Shown: piece after piece, positions 1,336-47,714 of the stretch | Layout: each line of letters begins with the position of its first letter | Position numbering within the stretch: the stretch's first letter is position 1 | From: Squalus acanthias | Taxonomy: Eukaryota | Length of the DNA: 64,000 nt | NCBI GenBank assembly: GCA_030390025.1 | Contig: CM059432.1 | Coordinates: 62,312,001-62,376,000, forward strand | Direction: 5' to 3' | The notes under the pieces: model-generated | Told to the model about the DNA's origin: nothing | Seen by the model: the letters and a program-made list of their open reading frames with translations, nothing else | Databases searched by the model: none | Program-made: the position numbers and the translations under genes

Positions 1336-4300
1336 ACTTGAAGGGTAGTTAGGAAGCAGTGGACATTTGTTAGAGGAATTATATCTTGGGGGTGGAGAAT
1401 GTCCCTGTTAGAACCACAACAATTATATGAGCAGCACAAAACAAATTCCTACAAAAATTAGTATGCAGTTTCTAAAATAATGATGAACCCTACTGAGTTT
1501 ATCGTAGAATGGTTACTGGCAAGCCTATTCGGCCCGTCGAGCCCATGCCGGCTCTCTGCAAGAGCACTTCAGCGAGTCCCACTCCCCCACTCTATCCCCG
1601 TTGCCCTGCAAATTTCTTTCCTTCAGATACTTATCCAACTCCCTTTTGAAAGCCGTGATTGAATCTGCCTCCACCACCCTTTCAGGCAGTGCATTCCAGA
1701 ACTTAACCACTCGCTCTATAAAAAAGTTTTTTCTTACGTTGCCTTTGGTTCTTTTGCCAATCACCTTAAATCTGTGTCCTCTGGTTCTCAAACCTTCTGC
1801 CAATGGGAACAGTTTCCCTCTATCTACTCTGTCCAGACCCCTCATGATTTTGAAAACCTCTATCAAATCTCCTTTCAATCTTCTCTGCTCCAAGAAGAAC
1901 AACTCCAGCTACTCCAGTCTATCAACGTAACTGCAGTCCCTCATTCCCGGAATCATTCTCGTAAGTCTTTTCTGCACCCTCTCTAAGGCCTTCACATCCT
2001 TCCTTAAGTGTGGTGCCCAGAATTGGACACAGTACTCCAGTTGGGGCTGAACCAGTGTTTTATACAGGTTCATCACAATTTCCACACTTTTATACTCTAT
2101 ACCTCTATTCTCTATTCATGAAGCCCAGGATCCCATAAGCCTTTTTAACTGCTTTCTCAACCTGCCCTGTCACCATCAATGATTTGTGCACACATACCTT
2201 CAGGTCTCTCTGTTCGTGCACCCACTTTAGGATTGTACCATTTAGTTTATATGTCCTCTCCTCATTCTTTCTACCAAAATGTATCACTTCATACTTTTCT
2301 GTGTTAAATTTCATCTGCCACGTGTCCGCCCATTTCACCAGCCTGTTTGTCTTCCTGAAGTCCATCACTCTCCTCCTCACTGTTCACTATACTTCCAAGT
2401 TTTGCGTCATCTGCAAATTTTGAAATTGTGCCCTGTACACCCACGTCCAAGTCATTAATATATATCAAGAAAAGCAATGGTCCTAGAACCGAACCCTGGG
2501 GAACATCACTGTATACCTTCCTCCAGTCCGAAAAACAACCGTTCACCACTACTCTCTGTTTCCTATCACTTAGCCAATTCCGTATTCATGCTGCCACTAT
2601 CCCTTTTATTCTATGGCCTTCAACTTTGCTGGCAAGCCTATTATGTGGCACTTTGTCAAACGCCTTTTGGAAATTCATGTACACTACGTCAACTGCATTA
2701 CCCTCGTCAACCCCCTCTGTTACCTCTGTTGTGCGAGGCCCCTTGGGGAGGAGCGATCATAATATGATAGAATTCTTCATTAAAATGGAGAGTGAAGTAG
2801 TTGACTCAGAGACTAGGGTCCTGAATTTAAATAAAGGAAACTACGATGGTATGAGGCACGAGTTGGCTAGGATGGATTGGGGAACGTTACTTAAAGGGTT
2901 GACAGTGGATAGGCAATGGCAAACATTTAATGATTGCATGGATGAACTACAGAATTTATTCATCCCTGTTTGGCATAAAAATAAAACAAAAAAGGTGACT
3001 CAACTGTGGCTAACAAGGGAAATTAGGGATAGCATAAGATCCAAGGAGAGGACATATAATTTGGCCAGAAAAAGCAGCAAACCTGAGGATTGGGAGCAGT
3101 TTAGGATTCAGCAAAGGAGGACAAAGGGATTAGTTAAGAGGGGGAAAATAGATTATGAGAGTAAGCTTGCAGGGAACATAAAAACTGACTGTAAAAGCTT
3201 CTATAGATATGTGAAGAGAAAAAGATTGGTGAAGTCAAGTGTAGATCCCTTGCAGTCAGAATCAGGGGAATTTATAATGGGGAACAAAGAAATGGCAGAC
3301 CAATTAAATACATACTTTGGTTCTGTCTTCACAAAGGAGGACACAAATAACCTCCCAGAGATGTCGGGGAACATAGAGGCTAATGAGAAGGAGGAATTGA
3401 ATGAAATCAGTATTTGTAGGGAAATGGTGTTAGGGAAATTGATGGGATTGAAGGCCGATAAATCCCCAGGGCCTGATAATCTACATCCTAGGGTACTTAA
3501 GGAAGTGGCCCTAGAAATAGTAGATGCATTGCTGGTCATCTTCCAAAATTCTATAGACTCTGGAACAGTTCCCATGGATTGGAGGATAGCTAATATAACC
3601 CCACTATTTAAAAAAGGTGGTAGAGAGAAACCAGGGAATTATAGACCAGTAAGTCTGACATCGGTAGTGGGGAAAATGCTAGAGTCCATTATAAAAGATG
3701 TAATAGCAGAGCACTTGGAAAACAGTGACAGGATCGGACAAATTCGACATGGATTTACAAAAGGTAAATCATGCTTGACTAATCTACTGGAATTTTTTGA
3801 GGATGTAACTGGTAGAATAGATAAGGGAGAACCAGTGGATGTGGTATATTTGGACTTTCAGAAGGCTTTCGATAAGGTCCCGTATAAGAGATTAGCGTGC
3901 AAAGTTCAAGCACATGGGATTGGGGGTAAGGTACTGTCTTGAATAGAGAACTAGTTAGCAGACAGGAAGCAAAGAGTTGGAATAAATGGGTCTTTTTCCG
4001 AGTGGCAGGCAGTGACTAGTGGGGTACCGCAGGGATCGGTGCTAGGACCCCAGCTATTCACAATATATATAAATGATCTAGACGAGGGAACTAGATGTAA
4101 TATCTCCAAGTTTGCAGATGACACAAAGCTGGGTGGGCTGTGAGGAGGATGCAGAGAAACTCCAGTATGATTTGGACAGGTTGGATGATTGGGCAGATGC
4201 ATGGCAAATGCAGTATAATGTGGATAAATGCGAGGTTATCCACTTCGGTGGCAAAAACAGGAAGACAGATTATTATCTGAACGGCAATAGATTGGGAAAA

Positions 4301-4971: not shown

Positions 4972-5865
4972 ATGGCGGAACACATTTGCAGTAAGTGTTG
5001 GCTGCTCGAGGAACTCCGGCTCCGTGTTGATGAGCTGGAGTCCGAGCTTCAAACACTGCGACACATCAGGGAGGGGGAGAGTTACCTGGACTCCGTGTTC
5101 CAGGAGGTAGTCACACCAATTAGAGTAACTAATTCAGAAGTAGCCCGTGGTCAGGGACAGGAAGGTGTGACTACGAGTGAGGCAGGTACAGGGATCCAGG
5201 AGGTAGTGTTGGAGGAGCCGCAGCCCTTGCTCTTGTCCAACAGGTTCGAGGCTCTTACTCCCTGTGTGGATAGGAGCGGGGACTGCAGGGAGGATGAGCA
5301 ACCTGGCCACAGCACCGTGGTAAGGGGGGCCATTCAAGTGGGGGGAGTAAAAAGAAATGTTGTAGTGGTAGGGGATAGTATCATTAGGGGGATAGATAGG
5401 GTTCTTTGCAGCCAAGAGCGAGAGTCCCGAAGGCTGTGTTGCCTGCCCGGTGCCAGGGTTAAGGACATCTCCTCTGGGCTGGAGAGAAACTTGGAGTGGG
5501 AGGGGGAGGATCCAGTTGTCGTGGTCCATGTTGGTACCAATGACATAGATAGGACAAGGAAAGAGGTTCTGCTGAGGGAGTTTGAGCAGCTAGGGGCCAA
5601 ATTAAAAAGCAGAACCTCGAGGGTAATAATCTCTGGATTACTACCTGAGCCACGAGCAAATTTGGCTAGGGTAAATAAAATCAGGGAGTTGAATGCGTGG
5701 CTCAAAGACTGGTGTGGGAAAAATGGGTTTTGCTTCTTGGGACACTGGCACCAGTACTGGGGCAGGAGAGAGCTGTTCCGTTGGGACGGACTTCACTTGG
5801 CCAGTGCTGGGACTAGTGTCCTGGCGAATCGAATAACTAGGGCTGTGGAGAGGGCTTTAAACTAA
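4972..5865 (+). CDS. CR1 ORF1p (half zinc finger, coiled coil, SGNH esterase), N-terminally truncated
   Basis: CSKC, leucine-zipper-like LEELRLRVDELESEL, and SGNH blocks GDS, PGA, GTND, DGLH. Confidence 0.88.
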   Translation: MAEHICSKCWLLEELRLRVDELESELQTLRHIREGESYLDSVFQEVVTPIRVTNSEVARGQGQEGVTTSEAGTGIQEVVLEEPQPLLLSNRFEALTPCVDRSGDCREDEQPGHSTVVRGAIQVGGVKRNVVVVGDSIIRGIDRVLCSQERESRRLCCLPGARVKDISSGLERNLEWEGEDPVVVVHVGTNDIDRTRKEVLLREFEQLGAKLKSRTSRVIISGLLPEPRANLARVNKIRELNAWLKDWCGKNGFCFLGHWHQYWGRRELFRWDGLHLASAGTSVLANRITRAVERALN

Positions 5866-8800
5866 TTAGTGGGGGGGAGGTTTCAAGAGAGCAAAAAATA
5901 AAAATGACAACAGAGAGGGTCATAGACATAGGTAGCAGTAGGGGAATCACAAATCAGAGCGTGGCAGGAAGGGACAGAGTGTGTGGAGTAAAAGGTAAAC
6001 TGGTAAAAAGTGAAAAAGCAGGAACTAAGTGCCACAAAGCATATTTGAAAGTTCTCTATCTGAATGCACGTAGCATTCGTAACAAAATAGACGAGTTAAT
6101 GGCACAAATAACTACATATGGTTATGATATTGTGGCCATTACAGAAACATGGCTGCAGGGTGACAATGCCTGGGAATTAAACATACCAGGTTATTTAACG
6201 ATCAGGAAGGACAGGCAGGAAGGAAGGGGAGGTGGGGTGGCTATGTTAATAAAGGAAGGAATCACTGTAATACAGAGTAATGATATTGGGTCAAAAAATC
6301 ATGATAATGAAACAGTTTGGGTGGAGATAAGGAATAATAAGGGGAAAAAAACATTAGTGGGCGTAGTCTATAGGCCTCCGAACAGTTGCAACTCTATTGG
6401 ACGGAGTATCAATCAGGAAATAGTTGAGGCATGTAATAAGGGAACATCTATAATTATGGGGGATTTTAACTATCATATTAATTGGACAAATCAAATGGGG
6501 CAGGGCTGCCTTGAGGATGAGTTCATTGAGTGTATTAGGGATGGGTTTCTTGAGCAGTATGTAACTGAACCGACCAGGGGGCAAGCAACCTTAGATCTGG
6601 TCCTGTGTAACGAGACAGGATTAATTAAAAATGTCCTAGTAAAGGATCCCCTTGGAATGAGTGACCATAACATGGTTGAATTCCATATTCAATTAGAGGG
6701 TGAGAAGGTTGGATCTCAAACAAGCGTGCTAAGCTTGAATAAAGGAGACTATGAAGGTATGCGAGCGGAATTGAGTAGAGTGGATTGGGAAAATAGATTA
6801 AAGGGTAAGACGACACATGATCAGTGGTGTACATTCAAGGAGTTATTTTACAACTTCCAAAAAAAATATATTCCACTGAAAAGAAAAGGGTGTAAAAGAA
6901 AGGACAGTCATCCGTGGCTAAGTAAAGAAATTAAGGATAGTATTCGACTAAAAACAAGGGCATATAAGGTAGCGAAATCTAGTGGGAGGACAGAGGATTG
7001 GGAAAACTTTAAAAGGCAGCAAAAAATAACAAAAAGATTGATTAAGAAAGGGAAGATAGATTATGAAAGTAAATTAGCAAAAAATATAAAAACAGATAGT
7101 AAGAGTTTTTATAGTTATATAAAAAGAAAAAGGGTGGCTAAAGTAAATGTTGGTCCCTTAGAGGATGAGACCGGGAAATTAATGGTGGGAAATATGGAGA
7201 TGGCAAAAACACTGAATGAATATTTTGTATCAGTCTTTACAGTAGAGGACACTAAGAATATCCCAACACTGGACAAACAGGGGGCTATAGGGGGAGAGGA
7301 GCTAAACACGATCAAAATCACTAAGGAAGTGGTACTCGGTAAAATAATGGGACTCAAGGCGGATAAATCACCTGGACCTGATGGCTTACATCCTAGAGTC
7401 TTGAAGGAAGTGGCGGTAGGGATTGTAGATGCATTGGTAATAATTTTTCAAAACTCCCTGGATTCCGCTAAGGTCCCGGCAGACTGGAAAACTGCTAATG
7501 TAACACCCTTATTTAAAAAGGGCAGTAGACAGAAGGCTGGTAACTATAGACCGGTTAGCCTAACATCTGTGGTAGGTAAAATTTTGGAGTCCATTATTAA
7601 GGAAACAGTAACAGGACATTTGGATAATCATAATTTAATAGGACAAAGTCAGCATGGTTTTACGAAGGGGAAGTCATGTTTGACAAATTTGCTGGAGTTC
7701 TTTGAGGAAGTAACATATAGAGTGGATAAAGGGGAACCAGTGGACGTAGTGTATTTAGACTTCCAAAAGGCATTTGACAAGGTGCCACACAAAAGATTAT
7801 TGCTTAAGGTAAAAAATCACGGGATTGGGGGTAATATTCTGGCATGGATAGAGGATTGGCTATCTAACAGAAAGCAAAGAGTTGGGATAAATGGTTCATT
7901 CTCAGACTGGCAATCAGTAACTAGTGGTGTTCCACAGGGGTCAGTGCTGGGTCCCCAACTCTTTACAATCTATATTAACGATTTGGAGGAAGGGACCAAG
8001 TGTAACATATCAAAATTTGCAGATGATACAAAGATGGGAGGGAAAGTAGTGAGTGAGGAGGACATAAAAAACCTGCAAGGGGACATAGACAGGCTAAGTA
8101 AGTGGGCAGAGATTTGGCAGATGGAATACAACACTGGAAAGTGTGAGGTGATGCACTTTGGCAGGAAAAATCCTAGAGCAATTTATTATCTTAATGGCAA
8201 GAAACTGGAGAGTACTGAAGTGCAAAGGGATCTGGGGGTCCTGGTGCATGAAACTCAAAAGGTTAGTATGCAGGTGCAGCAAGTGATTAAGAAGGCAAAT
8301 GGAATGTTGGCTTTCATTGCTAGGGGGATAGAATATAAAAATAGGGAGGTATTGCTTCAGTTGTACAAGGTATTGGTGAGACCGCACCTGGAATACTGCA
8401 TACAGTTTTGGTGTCCTTACTTAAGGAAAGACATCCTTGCTCTCGAGGCAGTGCAAAAAAGGTTCACTCGGTTAATCCCGGGGATGAGGGGGTGGTCATA
8501 TGAGGAGAGGTTGGGTAGATTGGGACTCTACTCATTGGAGTTCAGAAGAATGAGAGGCGATCTTATTGAAACATATAAGATTGTGAAGGGGTTGGATCGG
8601 GTGGATGCGGGGAGGATGTTCCCGATGACGGGTGAGACGAGAACTAGGGGACATAGTCTTAGAATAAGGGGCTGCTCTTTCAAAACTGAGATGAGGAGGA
8701 ACTACTTCACTCAGAGGGTGGTAGGTCCATGGAATATGCTGCCACAAAAAGCTGTAGAAGCTACAACATTAATTAAATTTAAAACAGAAATAGACAGTTT

Positions 8801-9086
8801 CCTAGAAGTAAAGGGCATTAAGGGTTACGGGGAGCGGGCAGGAATTTGGACATGAGTCTAGGTTCGGATCGGTCATGGCCCTGTGGGTAGTGGAGCGGGC
8901 CCAGGGACTGTGTAGCCTGATTCTGCTCCTATTTCGTGTGTGCAATTCTGTTAGATGCAGGAGATGGTTCTGTGATAGATAGTAGATTGGCGGTTAGGAT
9001 CAGATCAGCCATGATCTTATTGAATGGCGGAGCAGGCTCGAGGGGCCGATTGGCCTACTCCTGCTCCTATTTCTTATGTTCTTATG
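4983..9086 (+). mobile_element. CR1 LINE 'C': young, slightly 5'-truncated, inserted in the 3' UTR of B
   Basis: Flanked by atggcggaaca (4972-4982) and atggtggaaca (9084-9094); both ORFs open; ttcttatg tail. Confidence 0.92.
5904..8855 (+). CDS. CR1 ORF2p: APE endonuclease plus reverse transcriptase, uninterrupted 983 aa
   Basis: NARSI, ITETW, YRPP, GDFN, SDH (APE); [29 protein letters not shown] (RT). Confidence 0.96.
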   Translation: MTTERVIDIGSSRGITNQSVAGRDRVCGVKGKLVKSEKAGTKCHKAYLKVLYLNARSIRNKIDELMAQITTYGYDIVAITETWLQGDNAWELNIPGYLTIRKDRQEGRGGGVAMLIKEGITVIQSNDIGSKNHDNETVWVEIRNNKGKKTLVGVVYRPPNSCNSIGRSINQEIVEACNKGTSIIMGDFNYHINWTNQMGQGCLEDEFIECIRDGFLEQYVTEPTRGQATLDLVLCNETGLIKNVLVKDPLGMSDHNMVEFHIQLEGEKVGSQTSVLSLNKGDYEGMRAELSRVDWENRLKGKTTHDQWCTFKELFYNFQKKYIPLKRKGCKRKDSHPWLSKEIKDSIRLKTRAYKVAKSSGRTEDWENFKRQQKITKRLIKKGKIDYESKLAKNIKTDSKSFYSYIKRKRVAKVNVGPLEDETGKLMVGNMEMAKTLNEYFVSVFTVEDTKNIPTLDKQGAIGGEELNTIKITKEVVLGKIMGLKADKSPGPDGLHPRVLKEVAVGIVDALVIIFQNSLDSAKVPADWKTANVTPLFKKGSRQKAGNYRPVSLTSVVGKILESIIKETVTGHLDNHNLIGQSQHGFTKGKSCLTNLLEFFEEVTYRVDKGEPVDVVYLDFQKAFDKVPHKRLLLKVKNHGIGGNILAWIEDWLSNRKQRVGINGSFSDWQSVTSGVPQGSVLGPQLFTIYINDLEEGTKCNISKFADDTKMGGKVVSEEDIKNLQGDIDRLSKWAEIWQMEYNTGKCEVMHFGRKNPRAIYYLNGKKLESTEVQRDLGVLVHETQKVSMQVQQVIKKANGMLAFIARGIEYKNREVLLQLYKVLVRPHLEYCIQFWCPYLRKDILALEAVQKRFTRLIPGMRGWSYEERLGRLGLYSLEFRRMRGDLIETYKIVKGLDRVDAGRMFPMTGETRTRGHSLRIRGCSFKTEMRRNYFTQRVVGPWNMLPQKAVEATTLIKFKTEIDSFLEVKGIKGYGERAGIWT

Positions 9087-11999
9087 GTGGAACAGGCTCG
9101 AGGGGCCGAATGGCCTACTCCTGCTCCTATCTTCTATGTTTCTATGTAGAACTCAATCAAGTTAGTTAAACACGATTTGCCTTTAACAAATCCGTGCTGG
9201 CTTTCCTTAATTAATCCACACTTGTCCAAGTGACTTTTAATTTTGTCCCTGATTACTGTTTCTAAAAGCTTCCCCACTACCGAAGTCAGTTGGCCTGTAG
9301 TTGCTGGGTTTATCTTTACACCATTTTTTGAACAATGGTGTAACATTTGCAATTCTCCAGTCCTCTGGCACCACCCTCGTATCCAAGGAGGATTGGAATA
9401 TTATGGCCAGTACCTCCGCGATTTCCTCCCTCAATTCACTCAGCATCCTAGGATGCATCCCATCCGCTCCTGGTGACTTATCTACTTTAAGTACAGCCAG
9501 CCTTTCTAATACCTCCTCTTTATCAATTTTTATCCTATCAAGTATCTCCACTACCTCTTCCTTTACTACGTCTGTGGCAGCATCCTCTTCCTTGGTGAAG
9601 ACAGATGCAAAGTACTCATTTAGTACCTCAGCCATAACCTCTGCCTTTTTGGTCCCTAATCGGCCCCACCCCTCCTCTTGCTACCCTTTTACTATTTATA
9701 TGCCTATAAGACGACTTTTGGATTACCTTTTATGTTGGCTGCCATTCTATTCTAATACCCTCTCTTTTCCCCTTTTATTTTATTTTTCACTCCTCCTCTG
9801 ACCTTTCTATATATAGCCTGATTCTCAGATGCAACCTGACATCTGTCATACGCGCTCTTTTTCTGCTTCATCATATTCTCTATCTCTTTCATCATCCAGG
9901 GAGCCCTGACTTTAGTTGCCCTGCCTTTCCCCCTAGTGGGAATGTACCTCGACTGTACCTAAACTATTTCCTCTTTAAAGGCAGCCTATTGTTCCATTAC
10001 AGTTTTGCCTGCCAATCTTTGATTCCAGTTTACCCGGGCCAGATCCGTTCTCATCCCACTGAAATTGGCCTTCCCCCAGTTAAACATTTTTACTCTAGAT
10101 TTCTCCATGACCTTTTCCATAGCTAATCTAAACCGTATGATACTATGATCACTGTTCCCTAAATGTTCACCTACTGACACTTGCTCCACTTGACCTACCT
10201 CATTCCCCAGAACCAGATCCAGCAATGCCTCCCTTCTCGTTGGGTCGGACACATACTGATCAAGAAAGTTCTCCTGAACACGCTTCAGAAATTCTTCCCT
10301 TTCTCTACCCTTAACACTATTACGATCCCAGTCTATATTAGGATAGTTGAAGTCCCCCATTATTACTACTCTATAGTTCTTGCACCTCTCTGTAATTTCT
10401 TTGCAAATTTGTTCCTCCATATCTTTCCCACTATTTGGTGGTCTATAGAATACACCTAGTAGTGTAATGGCACCTCTATTATTTCTTAACTCTAGCCATA
10501 TAGATTCTGTCCTTGACCCCTCCAGGACTTCCTCCCTCTCCAGCACTGTAACATTCTCCTTGACCAATACTGCCACACCACCTCCAATCTTACCTTCCCT
10601 ATCTTTCCTGAACACTTTATAACCAGGAATATTAAATACCCAATCCTGCCCTTTTTTGAGCCAGGTCTCAGTTATTGCCACAACATCATATTCCCATGTG
10701 GCTATTTGTGCCTGCAGCTCACTTACCTTGTTTACTACGCTTCGTGCGTTCACATACATCCACTGTAAACCCATCTTAGACCATCCTGTATTCTCTCTTA
10801 GTTTGACCCCCTCTAATACCTTACTATTTCTTACTTTAGTGCTCTTTGCCTCTTCCAATACTTTGAGCACTTTATTTCCCCTTTCTAATGTTACATCCTG
10901 GTGCCCACCCCCCTGCCAAATTAGTTTAAACCCTCCCCAACAGCACTAGCAAACCTCCCCGCGAGGATATTGGTTCCGGCCCTGTTGAGGTGCAACCCAT
11001 TCGGCCTGTACTGGTCCCACCTCCCCCAGAACTGGTCCCAATGCCCCAGGAATCTAAAGCCCTCCCTCCTGCACCATCTCTCCAGCCACGCATTCATCTG
11101 CGCTATCCTCCTAATTCTATACTCACTAGCGCGTGGCACCGGGAGTAATCCAGAGATTACTACCTTTGAGGTCCTGCTTTTTAATCTCTTTCCTAGTTCC
11201 CTGAAATCTGCCTGCAGGACCTCATCCCTCTTACTACCTATGTCGTTGGTACCGATATGGACCACGACCTCTGGCTGTTCACCCTCCTGCCTCAGAATGT
11301 TCTGCAGCCGCTCAGTGACATCCTTGACCCTGGCACCAGGGAGGCAACATACCATCCTGGAGTCACGTCTACGGCCGCAGAAACACCTGTCTGCTCCCCT
11401 AACAATCGAATCCCCTCCCACTATTGCTTTCCCACTCTTCTTCCTCTCCCCCTGTGCAGCTGAGCCACCCGTGGTGCCGCAACTTGGCTCTGGCTATACT
11501 CCCCAGAGGAACCATCGCCCTTCACCAGTACTCAGAACCGAATACTGGTTGGAGAGCGAGATGCACTCAAGGGACTCCTGCACTACCTGCCTGGTCCTCC
11601 TTTTCTGTCTGGAGGTCACCCATTCCCTTTCTGCCTGCACACTCTTTATCTGCGGAGTGACCACCTCCTGAAACGTGCTATCCACAAAGCTCTCAGCCTT
11701 ACGGATGCACCGCAGTAATGCCAGCTGCTGCTCAAGCTCCAAAACCCGGAGCTCGAGCTCCTCCAGCTGATGACACATCCTGCACATGTGGTTGTCCAGG
11801 ACACAGGAAGCGTCCTGGAGTCCCCACATGGCACAGGATGTGCATTCCACAGGACTGAGCTGCCCTGCTATGCCTTTACGTAATAGACTATTAACTAGAA
11901 ACACTTACCAGCTACTCACCAATCAGCTCCTTCCCTGGTTGTGACGTCGCTTTAGCTGTTTTGCAGTTGTTACTTTTGTTGTTGTTTTTGCTGGAGGTT

Positions 12000-12166
12000 C
12001 TCCGCCTCCTCGCTGCCACCACTGCTCCAGTCTGCGCTCTCTCTGGGCCTCCCGCTCAATTTATCCTCTGTCTCCTCGCTGCCGCTGCTGCTCCAGTCTA
12101 CGCTCTCTCAGGTCCTCCCGCTCGGTTTATACTCCGCCTCCTCATTGCCGCCGCTGCTCCAATCTC
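12000..12166. repeat. 66-bp tandem repeat (~2.5 units) at the 5' end of CR1 A
   Basis: Units start at 12000, 12066 and 12132 (ctccgcctcctcgctgcc...gctccagtct..gctctctc.gg.cctcccgctc..tttat). Confidence 0.9.
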
Positions 12167-12988
12167 TTTGTTTAGTAATCTGATTGATTTCATGTTTATT
12201 TTTCTCTTTCACTTTTGATTTTTCTATATACCTGGTACTATCATTTTCAGTTAGTGTAATAAACATTGAGATATTGTGTGATTTTCCTTTTGGTTTATTT
12301 CCGTGAGAAACTAAAGAACAAGCATTACCTGTAGACACATCCAAAGTTGTGGTGAGGTGTTTATATGACCAGACTGCTCCGCCAAGTGGTAACTCTGTGT
12401 ATCAATATCTGTTCATTTTGTTTAACTGAGCCATATCAAAATTAGAGAGTTGTGGCTGTATACCCTGTACAGTTTAACCTGGAAACTGAGAATCTTCTCA
12501 GCCTATCAGCTGTGCCTCTTCTAGTTGCCACAAAGTGTGGAGCACAAAGAGTGGTTTTGTGGAAACTGCCATCACATTTTCTTCTCGCTTGTGGAGAAAT
12601 GCCTGCCCCCTGCTCAACATCACCTTGCAGCAGTAATGTGACTGAGATTGGATACTCAATAGAGTGGGGAGTGTTGTTCCACTCTATGGAACTGCACATT
12701 GATATTTCAACATATATAAAATCTATGAAATGTTGCATGACCACTGACCAGTTTCGTGTTGGACCTGACATTTGAAATTAAGTCAGAATGCAGAGCTGTG
12801 GCTTGTATATCTGCCTCTTGCTGCCTGTTCACCCCATTTCCTTAGTAAGAAGATAAAGACCTATTTAGGACTAAGTTATGCAGAACAGAATAGCAGCTGT
12901 AACCCCTTTGGGATGCAAGGTGACTTTAAAAAAATGTAATTCAAGTCTACAAAACCTCCCATCTATCACAAAACAATTTTATATTTCT

Positions 12989-13120
12989 CTGACAAAAGGT
13001 CATCAACCTGAAACGTTAACTCTGTTTCTCTCTCCACAGATGCTGCCTGACCTGCTGAGTATTTCCAGCCTTTTCTGTTTTTATTTCAGATTTCCAGCAT
13101 CCGCAGTATTTTACTTTTGT
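12989..13120 (+). mobile_element. Penelope-like solo terminal-repeat insertion
   Basis: 14-bp TSD aattttatatttct (12975-12988, 13121-13134); same sequence as the termini of the element at 32352-34420. Confidence 0.85.
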
Positions 13121-13314
13121 AATTTTATATTTCTATCCCTCTGACTTTACTTCTTACAATAAGTTGTAAAATGAACAAATTTACAGAAGTACAAACTAAA
13201 AATTCTTATAAGAATTCTAACAGCCTCTAAAGTCTGGGAATGAAGAGGTTAAAGTTGCTGGTGATTTGGAGCTGAAATCTCAGTTTGTCATAACTCAGTT
13301 TGTAAAATAGAGCA

Positions 13315-14180
13315 ACAGAATGTTACAAGTGGAAAAAGGCCATTTGACCCATTAAGTCTTCTTCCGCACGTGAGAGGCGAATCCCACTCTCCTACTTGCA
13401 CCCTCTACTCTTTAATATTCCCCTTTTAAGAAACTAATTCACTTTTTTAAATTACTTATGGACTCCACTTCAACAGCTGTTTGTGACAGAATGCTACATC
13501 ATAGCTACCCCCCCCAGTAAATAATATTTTTCTAGCCTCTCCTTTAACTTGTTATTATTTTAAATTTGTGTCCTCTCGTTATCATCTTGCTGATTAGTGG
13601 GAACAATCTATCATTACTTGCCTTATTGTAACCCTTCACAATCTTGAAGCACTCTATATCAGGTCATCCATCAACCTTCTTGGCTCTTGGGGGGAAACAC
13701 CCTAATTTCTCAAATCTCCCTTCATAACTGCAGCCCACACACCTGATAACATCCTAGTAAATCTGTGCTGCTTCTTTTCCATTACTTTTATATCCTTCCT
13801 GTAATGAAGTGCCCAAAACGAAACATACTCCAACTGTGGCCTAGATAAGGTCTTGTACAAGTTATGTATATAGTAAATCGTCCCACACAACCCCCATGGA
13901 ATATCACTCCTCACATTTTTCCTGTCCAAGATACTTAGCCCTACACTTTGCTTTCTGCCCTCCAACCATCTTTCTATTCCCTTTAATTCTATGTGCATTA
14001 CCTTTGTCATGGGTCTCTTGTGTTGTCTTATCAATTGCTTTTTGAAAATCCATATAAATCACATCTACTGCATTTCCTTTACCTCTCTTATTTCTTCAAA
14101 GTGTTCTATAAGGTTGGTCAAGCATTACCCATCCTTTAGAAGTCTGTACAATCTGGCACAGGTTACGTTGTTTTTTCAAG
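13315..14180 (-). mobile_element. Old CR1 3' fragment
   Basis: LYKTLSRPQLEYVSFWALHYRKDI...RFTRML remnant. Confidence 0.75.
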
Positions 14181-15042
14181 TGCTTAAGTAATTTCATTCC
14201 ATATTATAGATCCTAAGGCTCCAAATTTCATTTGGGAAACCGGAAAATGGGACAGAATCCAGTTGCACTGGGATTCTGCCCTGTTTGTGCCCTTATATGA
14301 AATTACAACAACAACTACATGCATTCATATAGCGCCTTTAAAGTAGTAAAACGTCCCAAGGCGCTTCACAGGAGAGTTATCAAATAAAATTTGACAGCGA
14401 GTCGCATAAGGAGATATTAGGACAGGTGACCAAAAGCTTGGTGAAAGAAGTAGGTTTTAAGGAGGGTCTTAAAGGAGGAGAGAGGTAGAGAGGGACAGTT
14501 CTACAATCACCCTTGGTGAGTCGACAGTCCCAAAATCCACCTCCTCTGGAAAAAGAGGCAAAGTACTTGTTTAATATTGCCATTTGTCAACACTGTAAAA
14601 GTTAATGGTGGTGATTCTGCATTCCAACATACCCAGGAGCAATGCTTGCAGGGAGAAAATCATAGGCTTTACAGCCTGTTATTTTCCATTCATAAAGTTC
14701 CTGAGCTAAGTTCCCTGTGAGCGCCATTTCCCACTGGAGGTGCTGGAAAGAAGACATAGAGCTTTGACTGTGAGGTCACTTCTCCAACACATTACTGCCC
14801 AGATCTTGTATCTGTACAAAATCAGTTAAAATGCTATTGCTTAAGGTATTTAAAACAGAATCTATACTATGAGATTGTCAAAGATGGCAATGTAGGATCC
14901 ATCAGCAAATTTATAGTATAAAAATTGTGGTGTTGTGGAAACTAGATATAGGACCAAGCTATTGACTCCAGAGGCAGCACCATCTATTCCTCAAAACTAA
15001 ATAGTAGATGCCCTATAGTGATAGAAGGCGTACAGAAACATA

Positions 15043-16620
15043 GAGCCAGAAATTGCTAGGATAATAATGACGCATTAACGGCGCTCGCCATTATTAATGC
15101 GTAAAAAATGCTGCAATTTACAGATTCTCCACAAATTCCTGGACAATTTGAGCCGCTCCACCATTGAACTTAATGGTGATCATGAAACTGCTGGATTTAC
15201 AACGTTAATAAGGGCTAGTAAATAATGTCATAGAGGACCCTAGTAATGATGTAATTTATTGTCCTGACATGACACTCAATCGTGGAGGCCCATAATAAGA
15301 CCAAGGAAGCTGTGGAGGCTAATTTCAGCAGGTACTGAGGGAGTGCTGCACTGTCGGAGGTGCCACCTTTCGGATGAGACGTTAAACTCAGGTGGATGTA
15401 AAAGATCCCATGGCACTATTTCGAAGAAAAGCAGGGGAGTTATCCCCGGTGTCCTGGTCAATATTTATCCCTCAATCAACATCACTAAAACAGATTATCT
15501 GGTCATTATCACATTGGTGTTTGTGGGAGTTTGCTGTGTGCAAATTGGCTGCCGCTTTTCCTACATTACAACACTTCAAAAAGTACTTAATTGGCTGTAA
15601 AGTACTTTGGGATGACTGGTGGTCATGAAAGGTGCTATATAAATGCAAGTCTTTTTAGCGAATTGTTCCTAGTGCTTTTTTATCCAATTTATTTGTCTTG
15701 ACAGTATTTTGTGCCAATCTTTACATCCACACTCCTGTTGGTGTCAGAAGGCAATAATTTTCAGAGTGCAAAAAGCTGTTTCGACACTCAGAAATGCAAA
15801 TTAGATAGTTTTCTTGCAGAAAATAACATTTTAGGATAAATTATATGAGTAATTTGAGACATGATGTGGTAAATGTAGCTTGGGAGGAAAAAAATGACTT
15901 TGGCCCTATGGTTTCTGAGCCTCTCCACCACTGGAGTTTTCCTGGTGTTATTTCTGGGTCTGTGTTAGACTGACTGCTATGATTAGTCAACAACCCCATT
16001 ATCATTGTATCATGCTACTACCGGATGGTAGAAAGCAAACTCGATTGATCTTGGTGTTTTTTTGTCTCGCAATTCCTATGTTCCTATGAAAGCAGTGCAA
16101 TGGTGTACCCACTGGGTGTTCCACTGTTCCTGATCGTGCTGGTTCTAAACTTCATGGGCCAAGAATGTTTGCACATTCCGCACACATACTCTGCTATTCA
16201 CTCATTAACTTCTCAAGGACCAATACAACAATTCCCTAACACAACTGGATTACAATATCCTCTTCTTCAGCTTGTTCCTTTTAATTTTTTTCTTACTTTT
16301 CCTTTGTGTCTCTTTTATTCTCTCTCTCTCTCTTAAGCCACTCTCTTTCGTTCCCTCTCTTTCTCTTACTAATTTGACCCTAGTTTACCCTATTTCTTTC
16401 TCCATCATTCGCTCTGTTTTTTTCTACATCCTTTTCTTTCATTGGTTGAGATAAGCCATTGGGCACGACGTTCATGAGGTCCTAGATGCAACATGGAAAT
16501 TGTTGTGCCTCGATCTTCCAGCAATTTGCGGCATAAATATAGTGCAATGTCAATGGTGAGCTAAAAGGTCTAATTAAAATTGTTCGTTGCGAGATCCACC
16601 ATTGCAGCTATTTCTGGCCC
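15043..16620. mobile_element. Old Harbinger-type MITE with nested SINE (15331-15655) and CR1-tail fragments
   Basis: Termini gagccagaaattgc and gctatttctggccc are inverted repeats; arms resemble 50784-51510. Confidence 0.5.
15331..15655 (+). mobile_element. DeuSINE/SacSINE1-like SINE, 5'-truncated
   Basis: High identity to 49742-50095. Confidence 0.85.
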
Positions 16621-16664
16621 ATTGCCTCACCATAGGAAAATAGTATAGGTCCACCAATAACTAA

Positions 16665-16885
16665 ACTGTTTAGGCTGGCGAGTAATTGAACCCTGCAGAC
16701 CAGGAAGAACCCAGGTTTGATACATGGTCTGTGCTGAGTTGATTGATGGGTGTCAGGAGAGGGCTTCAGTGGCCTTAGTGTTCTTGTGTTAGGAAAGGGA
16801 AAATCACTCACACTGCCTTTCTGCTTCTGATTGCTATCTATTGGCCCCTCCTGAAACTGAATATGTGAGGACAGGATTTGAGTAG
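16665..16885 (+). repeat. Unclassified old SINE-like family (also ~41865-42190 and ~57490-57830)
   Basis: Three copies share cagaccagga..cccaggtttgat..ggtctgtgctgagtt and ctcctgatcgctatc..acccct-like blocks. Confidence 0.5.
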
Positions 16886-16949
16886 TATTAAATGAGCTAT
16901 GAACATTTTTTCAATGTATACAGATTTAAGTCAGTTCTGTTTAGGTCTT

Positions 16950-17085
16950 ACAAAAGCAAAATACTGCGGATGCTGGAAATCTGAAATAAAAACAGAAAAT
17001 GCTGGAAATACTCAGCAGGTCAGGCAGCATCTGTGGAAAGAGAAACAGTTAACGTTTCAGGTCGATGACCCTTCATCAGAACTGG
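16950..17085 (-). mobile_element. Penelope-like solo terminal-repeat insertion
   Basis: Perfect 17-bp TSD agttctgtttaggtctt (16933-16949, 17086-17102). Confidence 0.88.
17046..17084 (-). ncRNA. Minimal type I hammerhead ribozyme motif
   Basis: CAGUU-CUGAUGA-A-GGGUC(AUC)GACCU-GAAA-CG-UU-AACUG: conserved core, stem I, stem II and a palindromic ACGU helix III. Confidence 0.75.
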
Positions 17086-17770
17086 AGTTCTGTTTAGGTC
17101 TTGCCTGCCTATGTTGATTTGGTTTTCCTTGGCGTCTTCAGCAAGGTTCAATTGGATCAACAAAACAACTAACAGCAGTAACCTACCTGAAGAATGCTTT
17201 TTCCAAAACTCTCAACTCAAATATTAGATTGTTGCTGATTTTTTGAGGGTCTTTTTCAAAGATGCACTTATATTATTAAAAAAACTAACACATCTCAAAT
17301 TAGATCTCTGGGACCCATGCAGAACCCGTTCCTCAGCAAGTACTACACGTGACGTAGAAAAATATCTCCAGCTGCTTCACAGATGTGTAAGGAAAAAATG
17401 GACGCCGAGCCAAAGAAGGAGATAATCGGAGGGCGGTCATAGAGGGAATTCCAGAGAATGAATTATCTTTTAATGACCAAGCAATGTTGTGCCTTTTGGT
17501 ATAGCTTTAAACCTGACTTAAATAGTGAATGAAACATTGTATTGCCAGTATTCCACTTGGGAGGAAGTATGGTTTAATAGCTTGTTCACTTTCTTGATGG
17601 AGGTAATTTATTACCCATATAATATCCTACATAAAACATTAACAGTCTAGGAGTTGCAATGGTACACATCAAACTCTCAGCCAGTTTCACATGCTAGACT
17701 CCTGCCCTTTAACACAGCTATTCTTATTTAGTCATGGTTGCGCTGCAGTGCAAAGCATTTCATAAGATAG

Positions 17771-18199
17771 AATAGCAAAATACTGCGGATGCTGGAAATC
17801 CGAAATAACAGAAAATGCTGGAAAAACTCAGCAGGCCAGGCAGCATCCGTGGAGAGAGAAACAGTTAACATTTCAGGTTGAAGACCTTTCGTCAGAACTG
17901 GAAAAAAGCAGGAAATGGAATAGATTTTAAAGCAAATTTAGCGGCTGGGAAAAGGGGGAGGGGATGAAAGAACAAAAGGGAAGGTCAGTGAAAGGATAGA
18001 AAGCAGGAGGGATTAAGAGACATTAAGAGATATTCAAGGCAAGAGGAGGTGGTAATGGGACAGGTTAAGGAACAAAGGATGGCTCTAGATGAAGTGTGAA
18101 TTGCGCTGGCAGAATGAAGGACAGCTGCCATGTTAACTCTGTTTCTCTCTCCACGGATGCTGCCTGGCCTGCTGAGTTTTTCCAGCGTTTTCTGTTGTT
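17771..18199 (-). mobile_element. Penelope-like insertion with inverted terminal segment
   Basis: 14-bp TSD atttcataagatag (17757-17770, 18200-18213); 18130-18199 is an inverted copy of part of 17795-17871. Confidence 0.85.
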
Positions 18200-23429: not shown

Positions 23430-26400
23430 ATCATAGAAATTTACAGCACAGAGGGAGGCCATTCAGCCCATCTTGTCCGTGCCAGCCGACAAAGAGCTAT
23501 CCACCCTAATCCCACTTTCCAGTTCTTGGTCTGTAGCCCTGTAGGTTACGGCACTTCAAGTGCATATCCAAGTACTTTTTAAATGTGATGAGGGTTTCTG
23601 CCTCTACCACCCTTTCAGGTAGTGAGTTCCAGACCCTACCACCCTCTGGGTGAAAAAATTTCTCCTCAAATACCCTCTAAACCTCCTACCAATTAGTTTA
23701 AATCTATACCCCCTGGTTATCGACCCCTCTGCTAAGGGAAATACGTTCTTCCTATCCACTTTATCTAGGCCCCTCATAATTTTATACACCTCAATTAGGT
23801 CTCCCCTCAGCCTCCTCTGTTCCAAAGAAAATAACCCCAGCCTATCCAATCTTTCCTCATAGCTAAAATTCCCCAGCCCAGGCAACATCCTCGTAAATCT
23901 CCTCTGCACCCTCTCTAGTGCAATCTCATCCTTCCTGTAATATGGTGTCCAGAACTGCACGCAGTATTCCAGCTGCGGCCTAACTAGTGTTTTATACAGT
24001 TCAAGCATAACCTCCCTGCCCTTATATTCTATGCCTTAGCTAATAAAGGCAAGTATCCCGTATGCCTTCTTAACCACCTTATCTACCTGTCCTGCTACCT
24101 TCAGGGATCTGTGGACATGCACTCCAAGGTCCCTATGATCCTCTGCACTTCTCAGTGTCCTACCATTTATTGTGTATTCCCTTGCCTTGTTAGCCCTCCC
24201 TAGATGCATTACCTCACACTTCTCCAGATTGAATTCCATTTGCCACTGTTCTGCCCACCTGACCAGTCCATTGATATCTTCCTGCCGTCTACAGCCGCCT
24301 TCTTCATTATCAACCACATGGCCAATTTTTGTATCATCTGCAAACTTCTTAATCATACTTCCTACATTCAAGTCCAAATCATTGATATATACCACAAAAA
24401 GCAAAGGACCCAGTACTGAGCCCTGCGAAACCCCACTGGAAACAGCCTTCCAGTCACAAAAACACTCTTCGACCATTACCCTTTGTTTCCTGCCTCTGAG
24501 CCAATTTTGGATCCAACTTGCCACTTTGCCTTGGATCTCATGGGCTTTTACTTTCATGACCAGTCTGCCATGCGGGACTTTATCAAAAGCCTTGCTAAAA
24601 TCCATATAGACTACATCAAACGCACTACCCTCATCGACCCTCCTTGTTACCTCCTCAAACAACTCAATCAAGTTAGTCAGACACGACCTTCCCTTAACAA
24701 ATCCATGCTGACTGTCTCTGATTAATCCGTGTCTTTCTAAATGAAGATTTATCCTGTACCAAAGAATTTTCCCCAATAATTTTCCCACCACCGAGGTTAG
24801 GCTGACTGGCCTGTAATTACTCGGTCTATCCCTTTCTCCCTTTTTAAACAACGGTACCACGTTAGCAGTCCTCCGGCACCACACCTGTAGCCAGAGAGGA
24901 TTGGAAAATGATGGTTAGAGCCTCTGCTATTTCCTCTCTTACTTCTCTTAACAGTCTGGGATACATTTCATCCGGGCCTGGGGATTTATCCACTTTCAAA
25001 GATGCTAAACCCCTTAATACTTCCTCTTTCACTATGTTTATTTCATCTAATATTTCACACTCCTCCTCCCTGATTGCAATTTCTGCATTGTCCCTCTCTT
25101 TTGTAAAACCAGACGCAAAGTATTCATTAAGAACCATACCCATGTCTTCTGCCTCCATACACAGGTTACCTTTATGGTCCCTAATAGGCCCTACTCTTAC
25201 TTTAGTTATCCTGTTGCTCTTAATGTGTTTATAAAACATCTTTGGGTTTTCCTTGATTTTACTTGCCAATATTTTATCATGCCCTCTCTTTGTTTTCTTA
25301 ATTTCCCTTTTAATTTCACCCCTGCACTTTCTATATTCCTCTAAGGTTTCTGCAGTATTGAGCCCTCGGTATCTCTCATAAGCTTCCCTTTTTTTCTTTA
25401 TCCTTCCCTGTATGCCCCTTGACATCCAGGGAGCTCTAGATTTGTTAGTCCCACTCTTTTTATTAAGGGAACATACTTGCTCTGAACCCTCACTATCTCC
25501 TCCTTGAATGCCTCCCACTGCTCTGACACTGATTTACCTTCAAGTTTCTGTCTCCAGTCCACTTTGGCTAAATCACATCTCAGCTTAGTAAAATTAGCTT
25601 TTCCCCAATTGAGAACTTTTATTCCTGGTCTATCCTTGTCCTTTTCCATAACTATGCTAAATCTAACTGAATTATGATCACGACCACCAATATGCTCCCC
25701 CACTGATACCCTTTCCACCTGCCCAGCTTCATTCCCTAAAACTAGGTCCAGAACCGCCCCCTCTCTTGTTGGGCTTGCTACGTACTGGCTAAAAAAGTTC
25801 TCCTGAATGCATTTTAAGAATTCTGCTCCCTCTATACCTTTCACACTAATTTTATCCCAGTTAATATTAGGGAAGTTGAAATCCCCTACTATTACTGCCC
25901 TATTTTTGTATGTCTCAGAAATTTGCCTACATATTTGCTCTTCTATCTCCCTCTGACTGTTTGGGGGTCTATGGTACACTCCCAGCAGTGTGATTGCCCC
26001 TTTTTTGCTTTTCACTTCAACCCATATGGCCTCGTTGGATGATCCTTCTAAGATATCATCCCTCCTCACAGCTGTAATTGTTTCTTTAATCAATATTGCG
26101 ACCCCCCCCTCCTTTTTTATCCCCCCTCTCTATCTCGTCTGAAAACCCTGTAACCAGGAATGTTGAGCTGCCATTCCTGCCCTTCTTTCAGCCATGTCTC
26201 AGTAATAGCTCTATCATTCTCCCACGTGTCTATCTGTGCCCTCAGCTCATCTGCTTTATTCCCTAGACTCCTTGCGTTGAAGTATATGCCATTTAGCACT
26301 GCCAAACTCCCTTGTTGTCTATTTTCTAGCCTTTGTTTCCTCTGCCTTCCAAACTCGCATACTAATTTTCTGCCTTCCATTTCCAGCTTTGCTTCTCTCC

Positions 26401-29945: not shown

Positions 29946-30893
29946 AGATGTTGTCTGCATGCCATCATGTAGAAGATGGTACTACTCTCAGACTTTTGTG
30001 TGAAGTGGAGGCAGCACACGTTTCCTAACATGTTGAATGGTTGTGACAGGTGCAGACACAACATTTCAGATGTTGTTGTACCTCCATTTGACGGCCCTCC
30101 ATGAACTCTTCCTTATCTGAAGCATCTAGCATGTTCAAAAATCAGCAAGGAATGGCTATGTTCACCATGTTGTACGTTGCAATTTAGATGCCTGAAGCAA
30201 TGAAGAATACTGAAGATCATAGAACTTAGAGAGCATCAAGATCATGTAACATGATCAAAGGAATGGCCATGGCTGTGGGAGGGGAGGAGCTGACATGGAA
30301 CGTCGGATTGAAATGGACAAGCAGAGCAAAGAAGTCAGTGGAGGATTGGGAGGGTGAATTCAAGACCAAACCCTTTGAGAATGACAAGTTACTCAGTGCA
30401 AAGCCAGACTGGAGGGAGAAGAATTTGACGAGGAAGGTGCTTAAGGTGGTAATAGATAATGAGCATCTTAAAGGAGAGATGGGAGGGCGATAGAGGGTGA
30501 GGTGTTCAAAAGAGCAGAAGCCAGAGGAAGAGAGGAAAAGGCTAAGGTGGGATCTCACTACAAGCACCATACCACCATCGTGGCGGTTTGGGTGAAGAAC
30601 ATGGTGTGATGTAATTCAGGTGCTGTGGTCTCAGTGCGGGGGAAGAATTCACCAATGGTGAGCCAGGTTGCTGATGAATGTGCTGTGTATTTCCAGGATT
30701 TTCTGGTTTTATTTTTACTTAATATATATCTTACATTGAACAGCAAGAATCCATAAATTAGGTAAATCAAAAAAGTATTAGAATTGTTTTTCAGTATAAC
30801 CAAATCAGAAGAGCACAAGAATATGGAACAAAATGGTTTTGGTCCATCTATTCGTTCCTTCGACAGACGAAGTACAATTTGGCTCATACAGAC

Positions 30894-47712: not shown

Positions 47713-47714
47713 TA

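Follow-up and report, generated by a model that had tools for sequence, protein, structure and literature searches.

Short Penelope-like terminal-repeat insertions in Squalus acanthias with 5′ ends near a minimal hammerhead motif

Introduction

Minimal hammerhead ribozymes (min-HHRs) of metazoan Penelope-like elements (PLEs) are described as type I motifs with a helix I of 4–5 bp, an additional nucleotide that separates positions 9 and 10.1 and a palindromic 15.2–16.2 segment without loop 3, and they occur mostly as single dispersed motifs, which were ascribed to truncated PLEs (Cervera & De la Pena, 2014; PMC4209133). They have been reported in the fish elements Xena, Poseidon and Neptune; the consulted sections of that work make no mention of sharks and leave 5′ truncation points unmapped. 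PLE hammerheads cleave poorly in vitro, and cleavage is dispensable for insertion in the sole reconstituted system (PMC11167929, PMC4209133). In PAc, a Poseidon element from Anolis carolinensis (Frangieh et al., 2024; PMC11167929), two internal starts of reverse transcription define a tail of 30–40 nt, targets are AT-rich, the hammerhead lies at the ORF start and insertions are not bounded by the cut; uncleaved RNA was the main substrate, no reads ended at the cut, and the genomic 5′ ends of PAc are not discussed in the sections of the text consulted. Endonuclease-bearing PLEs in general display 5′ truncation, an adjacent inverted truncated arm, a tail at one end, a terminal repeat that overlaps the ORF start, variable target duplications and solo repeats, while a preferred 5′ boundary at the upstream edge of the hammerhead is undescribed in the portions consulted of the corresponding accounts (PMC8557442, PMC3846280). 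Animal non-LTR retrozymes are short and non-coding, carry type I hammerheads, are kin to PLE terminal repeats, have long target duplications and also exist as monomers, and one has been reported from a chondrichthyan (PMC7229834, bioRxiv 10.64898/2026.07.22.740005).

The locus analysed here, in a window of 64,000 nucleotides from Squalus acanthias (contig CM059432.1), shares these structural features with the respective systems. It differs from retrozymes, which are tandem, with a hammerhead in each unit, and give unit-length and circular RNAs, in that the shark units are single, colinear with a PLE 3′ end and tailed like a PLE (PMC7229834, bioRxiv 10.64898/2026.07.22.740005, as far as consulted). 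The location of the shark 5′ ends may bear on the role of PLE hammerheads.

Solo terminal repeats and their parent element

Two short units, of 132 and 136 bp, were found between exact direct repeats.

12975–12988, + strand: left target-site duplication of solo unit 1 (14 bp, exact repeat)
12989–13120, + strand: solo unit 1, PLE terminal repeat with a tail of ~30 nt, beginning at hammerhead position C3
13040–13120, + strand: ATG and 27 open codons in solo unit 1, probably an ORF start
13121–13134, + strand: right target-site duplication of solo unit 1 (14 bp, exact repeat)
16933–16949, + strand: target-site duplication at the 3′ end of solo unit 2 (17 bp, exact repeat)
16950–17085, − strand: solo unit 2, PLE terminal repeat with tail, beginning 6 nt before C3
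17086–17102, + strand: target-site duplication at the 5′ end of solo unit 2 (17 bp, exact repeat)

The original prediction of two independent insertions with 14- and 17-bp duplications, made up of the terminal repeat only and starting at or within a few nucleotides of the CUGANGA core, is thus borne out, with the addition that each unit comprises a tail besides the repeat, and nothing else. Direct repeats at most 300 bp apart occurred at 4 of 20,000 random window positions for a length of 14 nt and at 1 of 20,000 for 17 nt.

Both units are the terminal repeat and tail of a Neptune-type PLE with longer copies in the same window; they are colinear with the 3′ end of long copies that carry reverse transcriptase (RT) and GIY-YIG pieces, and the position of their end in the tail is identical. 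The RT piece matches 101 of 109 candidate proteins, the best matches being mostly elasmobranch (66–74% identity). Searches with tblastn gave the domain order RT, then C-terminal GIY-YIG endonuclease, the latter with E = 0.0076, below the Pfam cut-off, on a broken piece of 60 amino acids. A CxxC remnant of a Cys-rich linker lies at 32901–33120 (− strand); the full motif is present in the close homologues P0009 and P0018, and the linker is carried by 44 of 102 proteins. Such a Cys-rich, zinc-finger-like linker between RT and endonuclease is diagnostic and common to Neptune and Nematis (PMC8557442, in the part consulted), and together with the vertebrate host it points to Neptune, in contrast to PAc, which belongs to the Poseidon clade (PMC11167929). 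The traits of PLE insertion are all present (5′ truncation, an adjacent inverted arm, a tail of 30–40 nt at one end and a variable target duplication), and the insertions, with their long, variable duplications and tail end, are almost certainly PLE-made, as had been proposed; as elements they are unremarkable PLE remnants. Two classes of 3′ end, ~30 nt apart, occur in the window, and public contigs have loose ends at 34371–34377 and 34415, in parallel with the pair of start sites in PAc (PMC11167929).

By analogy with the PLEs treated in the consulted parts of PMC3846280 and PMC11167929, the open frame in solo unit 1 probably represents the beginning of the PLE ORF, which the terminal repeat duplicates; the open frame of the solos gave a match at E < 1 in none of 102 proteins. 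The first ATG follows the predicted cut by 20–22 nt here, whereas the PAc ORF is reported to begin at stem II (PMC11167929).

Further copies in the window are the following.

17771–18131, − strand: 360-bp 5′-truncated arm with hammerhead and tail; a 14-bp duplication encloses this arm and the next
18132–18199, + strand: inverted tail-less arm of insertion 17771–18199, beginning 3–5 nt before the predicted cut
32172–32223, + strand: 52-bp 3′-terminal fragment with tail and no hammerhead; a duplication was looked for and none was found
32342–33235, − strand: compound PLE insertion, inverted tail-less arm with thumb piece, Cys-rich linker, GIY-YIG, 3′ UTR and terminal repeat
33236–34415, + strand: compound insertion, main arm with RT piece, internal deletion, 3′ UTR and terminal repeat with tail
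47706–48215, − strand: tail-less 5′-truncated copy of ~505 bp, hammerhead intact
55690–56026, + strand: solo unit 3, an older, diverged terminal repeat beginning 16 nt before C3 (nhmmer; covariance model E = 0.0016)

The six copies of the motif listed originally are all present, and they represent five insertions rather than six, those at ~32410 and 34282 being back-to-back arms of one compound insertion. Solo unit 3 was absent from that list. It is interrupted at 55743–55936 by a LINE 3′-end piece, differs from the compared copies at 27–28 of ~125 sites and is flanked by an 11-bp duplication with one mismatch (55679–55689/56027–56037), which was recognized by eye and was not returned by the repeat search. 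A 21-nt motif scan for extra copies gave no loci in viral contigs, six loci in metagenomes, with matches of only 21–31 nt, and three loci in prokaryote genomes (bacterial records), and so added no copies.

The hammerhead motif

17046–17084, − strand: intact type I minimal hammerhead of solo unit 2, predicted cut after 17051
12989–13021, + strand: damaged minimal hammerhead of solo unit 1, predicted cut after 13017

The motif of solo unit 2, the only intact one of these two, has a 5-bp stem I, CUGAUGA, an extra A, a 5-bp stem II with a 3-nt loop, GAAA and the palindrome ACGU. In solo unit 1, which begins at C3, stem I is left without its 5′ arm; in addition, G8 is changed to A and one C–G pair of stem II is broken. 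A minimal-hammerhead descriptor retrieved five sites in the window and none in each of 100 Markov shuffles, so the motif exceeds chance; these sites account for five of the six copies (copy 17085 and four other arms), the one escaping detection being copy 12989. Both the additional A that follows CUGANGA and the helix III of ACGU are present as noted originally, with the palindrome intact in four of the six arms. One departure from the min-HHR reported in PMC4209133 concerns pair 10.1–11.1, which is A–U or G–U here and a highly conserved G–C there. We are highly confident that this is the minimal hammerhead of PLEs described in 2014, and the identification of the motif as a hammerhead stands.

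The claim that the loop of stem II varies while core and stem are retained finds weak backing: relative to the majority of the six copies, changes affect 3 of 18 positions in loop II, 5 of 60 in stem II, 1 of 36 in the core, 0 of 24 in GAAA, 2 of 24 in CGUU and N7 in 3 of 6 copies. In the covariation check proposed at the outset, two-sided changes occurred in none of nine pairs among six similar arms that diverge too little for such a signal, and 500 of 500 shuffles did equally well. With an E-value limit of 5, Rfam returned no hammerhead, monomer folding of five stretches was no better than that of shuffles (z from −0.65 to −1.46), and the predicted self-duplex would have −3.5 kcal/mol.

Position of the 5′ ends

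Seven primary 5′ ends were considered, a count that omits both inverted arms as well as a fragment of 34 bp at 30681–30714 (E = 0.046). Three of them lie at 0, −6 and −16 from C3, and none lies at the predicted cut, which sits 29 nt (solo unit 1) and 35 nt (solo unit 2) from the 5′ ends, slightly correcting the ~30–37 nt originally given; only the inverted arm at 18132 begins close to the cut. The view that cleavage did not generate the 5′ ends is therefore upheld, and a cleavage-product model is rejected. The ends in the window range from 52 to more than 1180 nt. The chance of any three of seven ends falling within 16 nt is 0.03–0.40, that of the third copy alone 0.24–0.47, and that of at least three of seven in the 132–148 band 0.0006–0.006, the band having been picked after two of the ends were known.

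Contigs from four public runs, the two large ones apparently DNA, were aligned against the main arm (33236–34415) as reference, and their clipped ends were compared with simulations that rest on guesses at the aligner and at the contig tool's definition of ‘agreement’. All four runs had loose ends at the base that opens stem I (413, 625, 46 and 36 contigs), with agreement values of 0.40, 0.41, 0.46 and 0.51. Simulated agreement was 0.517 (0.508–0.527) and 0.516 for an even spread of ends and 0.417 and 0.415 for a 6-nt decay; in all three settings tried, the two large runs (0.40–0.41) fell below an even spread (0.51–0.53), although the same value would result if ~50–60% of the contigs carried unrelated upstream sequence from other families. 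Run X16 (0.51) matches an even spread, and the statistics favour a boundary in three of the four runs. The test is indirect because the reference is poor just upstream of stem I: its private mismatches pull junctions onto a single base from 15–20 nt, and in one donor from up to ~55 nt, which inflates the pile of loose ends. By count (413 of 10,773 partly aligned contigs; 24 of 1951 rows examined) the pile is not clearly over background, and the extent of the loose-end consensus, 16–20 element letters, was dropped as evidence, since this catchment alone yields it.

Overall, a non-random 5′ zone is likely. The preferred boundary that had been predicted has indirect support as one lying just upstream of the motif. 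It coincides with the 5′ edge of the ribozyme, but a putative transcription start, a splice-acceptor-like tract and a U-run lie at that place too, and its description as ribozyme-defined is not supported. A literature search, with most subscription papers outside its scope, returned nothing on 5′ ends clustering at a PLE hammerhead, and neither did a term search of three text supplement files of PMC11167929.

Discussion

The reading that we favour, with even confidence for and against, is that the solos are the shortest common insertion class of an autonomous Neptune-type PLE whose template RNA starts at the hammerhead edge. The GIY-YIG endonuclease would nick AT-rich DNA, as is established for PLEs, and reverse transcription would begin inside the RNA, ~100 nt downstream of the cut site, setting the tail end; such an internal start, shown in vitro for the anole PLE, is suggested in this element by the shared 3′ ends. 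RT would then copy the uncleaved hammerhead and halt in a narrow zone 0–16 nt before the core, as three copies show and as indirect evidence suggests genome-wide. Most likely, the template RNA would itself begin at this zone, with Pol II initiating on the first base of stem I or close to it, and a solo unit would thus be a run-off product. Longer copies would require either a template jump or an RNA read through in tandem, and the solos would be dead-end by-products of several PLE lineages, with no master copies of their own. Starts just before the ribozyme, and not at the cut, hint that the copied RNA begins there and, if the zone is real, it is probably caused by the RNA 5′ end. When scored against the initiator consensus, an initiator-like motif places +1 on the first base of stem I in all four long arms, a weak match because the motif recurs 5–8 times in each arm (274–391 nt). 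Drosophila Penelope has an internal promoter within its terminal repeat (PMC2377424); the D. virilis start is not at helix I but 46 nt upstream of a 75-nt intron whose end is at helix I (PMC4209133, PMC2377424, in the parts consulted). A stall of RT at the structure was disfavoured by reasoning, as RT should halt at the 3′ side of the hairpin and not at its 5′ side.

Ordinary random 5′ truncation would make the boundary an after-the-fact coincidence, the hammerhead merely lying 100–135 nt from the 3′ end. PLE insertions are mostly short, heavy truncation and a single terminal repeat are the PLE norm (PMC4209133, PMC8557442, bioRxiv 10.64898/2026.07.22.740005, as far as consulted), and the wide range of ends in the window, the chance of up to 0.40 for any three close ends and the one run in four that fits an even spread all agree with it; we nevertheless consider it unlikely in view of the two large runs and of the low chance for the 132–148 band, chosen post hoc as it was. 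A real zone might also stem from RNA processing or junction chemistry instead of a transcription start, through a 5′–3′ exonuclease that halts at a protein-bound hammerhead, splicing at the acceptor-like tract, or cDNA release at the U-run and annealing to an AT-rich target. The ragged ends (0, −6, −16) resemble a footprint; by eye, a branch-point-like motif, a pyrimidine run and CAG immediately precede the core in the long arms; in the sections consulted, the D. virilis intron terminates at helix I (PMC4209133) and the anole hammerhead requires the PLE protein to fold and cut (PMC11167929). Solo units 2 and 3, however, are unspliced, since they retain the AG, no upstream exon is joined in any of the three solos, none of the 15 joints listed (of 396) has a splice-type end at the acceptor, and the three junctions need only 1-nt microhomology (by eye), so that this origin appears improbable.

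The original prediction had instead seen a discrete, non-autonomous retrozyme- or SINE-like unit that has source copies of its own and depends on PLE RT for mobilization in trans. The three solos flanked by duplications do have uniform length and common ends; according to the sections consulted, terminal repeats contain sufficient cis signals for mobilization in trans (PMC3846280), and the retrozymes of vertebrates, which originate from the terminal repeats of PLEs, leave monomers behind (bioRxiv 10.64898/2026.07.22.740005). In an eight-row tree, from which the 52-bp fragment was left out, monophyly of the solos was not rejected (p-AU 0.12 for three solos, 0.10 for two), with none of five branches starred. 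This proposal was not borne out and is rated as quite improbable: no tandem unit exists in the 64-kb window, and hence neither a dimer nor a unit-length cleavage product; the 5′ ends are away from the cut; Pol III A and B boxes are missing from either strand of both solos tested, with no tRNA head and no Rfam match; and solo units 1 and 2 are about as far from each other (7 of 130 sites) as solo unit 2 is from the long arms (6 of 90 and 8 of 128). The anole protein, moreover, needs ORF sequence up to nt 172 (PMC11167929, part consulted), probably more than a solo contains. Recombination between the terminal repeats of a full-length element, in the manner of solo LTRs, would preserve an exact duplication and give a unit of repeat plus tail, and was proposed for rotifer solo repeats (PMC3846280); those repeats, as far as described there, had no duplications, the homology here spans only ~105 nt, and the hammerhead start of the upstream repeat would be left unexplained, making this origin very improbable indeed. 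The solos are thus probably not a separate mobile element, and we are rather confident that no separate solo family exists.

Should shark copies pile up at the upstream edge of the ribozyme and not at the cut, the 5′ terminus of an uncleaved template would be preserved in thousands of genomic insertions. This would tie the internal start of reverse transcription to pseudo-LTR formation, and a single genome assembly together with CAGE data would suffice to test it.

Contig depth, being neither copy number nor expression and shaped by the private changes of the reference, was dropped as evidence; over the terminal repeat it reached 3–4 times the upstream peaks in runs X1 and X9, and 9–17 times in the two runs guessed to be RNA.

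Results and discussion

Solo insertions and their parent element

The solo units of the window, which consist of the terminal repeat and tail of a Penelope-like element (PLE) alone, are genuine, unremarkable end-copies of that element. They show one regularity open to testing, an apparent crowding of 5′ ends at the upstream edge of the hammerhead, of which a literature search found no description; the hammerhead motif, its location and solo truncated copies were already known. The insertions considered are as follows.

12989-13120 (+), solo 1, 132 bp, flanked by 14-bp exact direct repeats
16950-17085 (-), solo 2, 136 bp, flanked by 17-bp exact direct repeats
55690-56026 (+), solo 3, with a diverged hammerhead at 55702-55737 detected by nhmmer and a covariance model
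17771-18199, compound insertion with an inverted tail-less arm
32342-34415, compound insertion with an inverted tail-less arm

The solos are of PLE origin, carry target duplications, share a tail end and begin upstream of the predicted ribozyme cleavage site (the cut). Solos 1 and 2 lie exactly where the original prediction had placed them, with exact repeats of 14 and 17 bp; of 20000 positions taken at random, 4 and 1, respectively, have repeats of such length. They are 93% identical, and eight further matching pieces are present in the window. Solo 3 is interrupted by a LINE 3′-end piece, is bordered by 11-bp repeats that differ at one position and begins 16 nt upstream of C3, the first base of the hammerhead core CUGANGA.

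The solo unit aligns colinearly with the 3′-terminal part of longer copies, which extend into the 3′ UTR, a GIY-YIG domain and the reverse transcriptase (RT). The RT piece matched 101 of 109 candidate proteins, the top named animal matches being from rays and sharks (66-74% identity), and a Cys-rich linker in the sequence points to a PLE of Neptune type. The single best match (protein P0002, 71%) is a partial protein from a contig of 474 bp assigned to a bacterium, and is probably host contamination. The insertion layout is that of textbook PLE architecture (PMC8557442, PMC3846280). Because of the compound insertions with inverted arms, the six copies counted originally represent five events. 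Both arms of 17771-18199 share several private changes, yet differ by a 2-nt indel just past the cut, and the inverted arm begins 3-5 nt ahead of the cut.

In solos 1 and 2, an ATG 20-22 nt past the cut opens 27 codons up to the tail end, for which no homologous protein was found among 102 candidate proteins; an ATG and open frame within the terminal repeat likewise occur in rotifer and anole (Anolis carolinensis) PLEs (PMC3846280, PMC11167929). The tail imperfectly repeats the sequence that precedes it (20-22 nt, 73-77%, period 27-29; 13061-13111, 16959-17009 and 55975-56021). By eye, 3′-splice-site-like motifs of a pyrimidine run plus AG lie ahead of the hammerhead core [47814-47830 (-)], of the ATG [17031-17045 (-)] and of the tail [16980-16998 (-)].

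The hammerhead motif

A type I minimal hammerhead descriptor matched five sites in the window and none in 100 shuffles. No Rfam model matched the motif. The motif of the copy at 17085 (solo 2) is complete: stems I and II have 5 bp each, the latter closed by a 3-nt loop, CUGAUGA is followed by a single additional A, GAAA is present, and ACGU takes the place of helix III. These features are shared with the minimal hammerheads of PLE terminal repeats (PMC4209133). In the copy at 12989 (solo 1), which begins at C3, stem I has no 5′ arm and G8 is changed to A; by analogy with the anole PLE, in which G8 changes abolished cleavage (PMC11167929), its ribozyme is very unlikely to cut.

Across six hammerhead arms, departures from the majority were found at 3/18 positions of loop II, 5/60 of stem II and 1/60 of the core, a trend in small numbers towards a variable loop around a largely conserved core and stem; two-sided changes occurred in none of the nine base pairs. 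Among the 40 of 424 rows listed from public contigs, the free position N7 is the sole strongly mixed hammerhead position besides one private change of the reference, being C in 52% (X1) and 41% (X9) of contigs in the two large sequencing runs. A putative second subfamily, in which loop II differs but the stem I arm, stem II and GAAA seem to be kept, shows in contigs that come loose ahead of 34326 (451 of X1 and 31 of run X16); the solo 3 hammerhead resembles it. Fold-back (opposite-strand) joints in and around the hammerhead were seen in public contigs at 34284-34340, 34289-34322 and 34301-34335, among the 15 of 396 joints listed.

Position of the 5′ ends

The seven primary 5′ ends in the window lie about 52, 132, 138, 148, 360, 535 and >1180 nt from the tail end. 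At least three ends inside the 132-148 band would be expected with a chance of 0.0006-0.006 for a fixed band, although the band was picked after two ends were known; for any three of seven ends inside 16 nt the chance is 0.03-0.40. None of the seven falls at the cut, which bears out the earlier view that the solos are not simple cleavage products; solos 1 and 2 do start upstream of it, at 29 and 35 nt rather than the ~30-37 nt proposed.

Contigs from four public runs (X1, X9, X16 and X17; 67013, 80011, 4019 and 3289 aligned) were compared with the long arm 33966-34445. All four contained contigs that come loose ahead of 34282, where stem I begins (413, 625, 46 and 36 contigs, with median loose lengths of 255, 123, 57 and 37). 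This pile proves little, since private changes just upstream in the reference draw junctions from 15-20 nt onto 34282, and 413 of 10773 partly aligned contigs is not clearly over background. A more informative measure is the agreement among the loose letters, which was 0.40 and 0.41 in the two large runs. Simulation, resting on a guessed aligner, gave 0.517 and 0.516 for an even spread (0.51-0.53 over three settings) and, under a 6-nt decay, 0.417 and 0.415; equally low agreement would arise if at least half of the contigs derived from other families whose upstream sequence is unrelated. X17 (0.46) fits decay and X16 (0.51) an even spread. These values lend moderate, though indirect, support to a preferred 5′ zone just upstream of the hammerhead. 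Pattern scans of viral contigs, metagenomes and prokaryote genomes gave no additional copies. In X9, many contigs carry a local duplication of a pyrimidine-rich UTR segment (34174-34217), perhaps a subfamily mark.

At the 3′ side, loose ends occur at 34371-34377 (tail-less class) and 34415 (tailed class). Two internal start sites of reverse transcription set the PLE tail, as described for the anole element (PMC11167929); as the two classes lie one period apart, both sites may follow one motif.

Origin of the solo units

With about even chances, in our judgement, the solos result from run-off at the RNA start: reverse transcription would begin ~100 nt past the cut, close to the mRNA 5′ end, and would reach the end of its template ~135 nt on, to give a cDNA that integrates as a solo unit. 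In four of four long arms, an initiator-like motif coincides with the base at which stem I begins; such motifs are common in this UTR. Penelope of D. virilis has an internal promoter within its terminal repeat (PMC2377424), and the anole PLE targets AT-rich DNA and works mostly from RNA that has not been cleaved (PMC11167929). Two points count against run-off: in D. virilis the start is 121 nt upstream of helix I with an intron in between (PMC4209133, PMC2377424), and a splice-acceptor-like tract lies ahead of the hammerhead core in the shark copies. Random 5′ truncation is a distinctly weaker contender, and 5′ ends set by RNA processing or junction chemistry seem unlikely.

A separate mobile family is a little more doubtful still. 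PLE-repeat-derived retrozymes, monomers included, have been described, one chondrichthyan included, in a preprint (bioRxiv 10.64898/2026.07.22.740005), and the retrozyme proposed originally would thereby fall within a described kind. Tandem hammerhead units, by which animal retrozymes are recognized, are absent from the window, and solos 1 and 2 lack the Pol III character of a SINE. Solos 1 and 2 differ at 7/130 sites, solo 2 and the long arms at 6/90 and 8/128, and solo 3 at 27-28 of ~125; a tree of solos and long arms neither supported nor rejected a clade of solos. The solos work like, and are, truncated PLE sequence, and a discrete retrozyme/SINE-like unit is unlikely. Recombination leaving solos behind is very improbable.

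Other repeats in the window

In a LINE at 4972-8855 (+), presumably of CR1 type, the endonuclease-RT frame is open over 1004 aa, and 297 aa of an esterase-type ORF1 are present; further LINE RT pieces lie at 2359-3942, 9986-10945, 24036-24914 and 26576-27913. A dispersed repeat of ~320 bp, which we take to resemble deuterostome/shark SINEs, has its best copies at 15320-15640 and 49743-50078 (82% alike) and weaker ones at 908-1100, 38336-38454 and 43881-44024; one copy lies between solos 1 and 2. At 32227-32290, a 21-nt inverted repeat (90%) adjoins a 52-bp PLE fragment. Tandem repeats occur at 9024-9140 (2 copies of 60 bp) and 12000-12165 (2.5 copies of 66 bp), and 25 consecutive G at 59342-59366.
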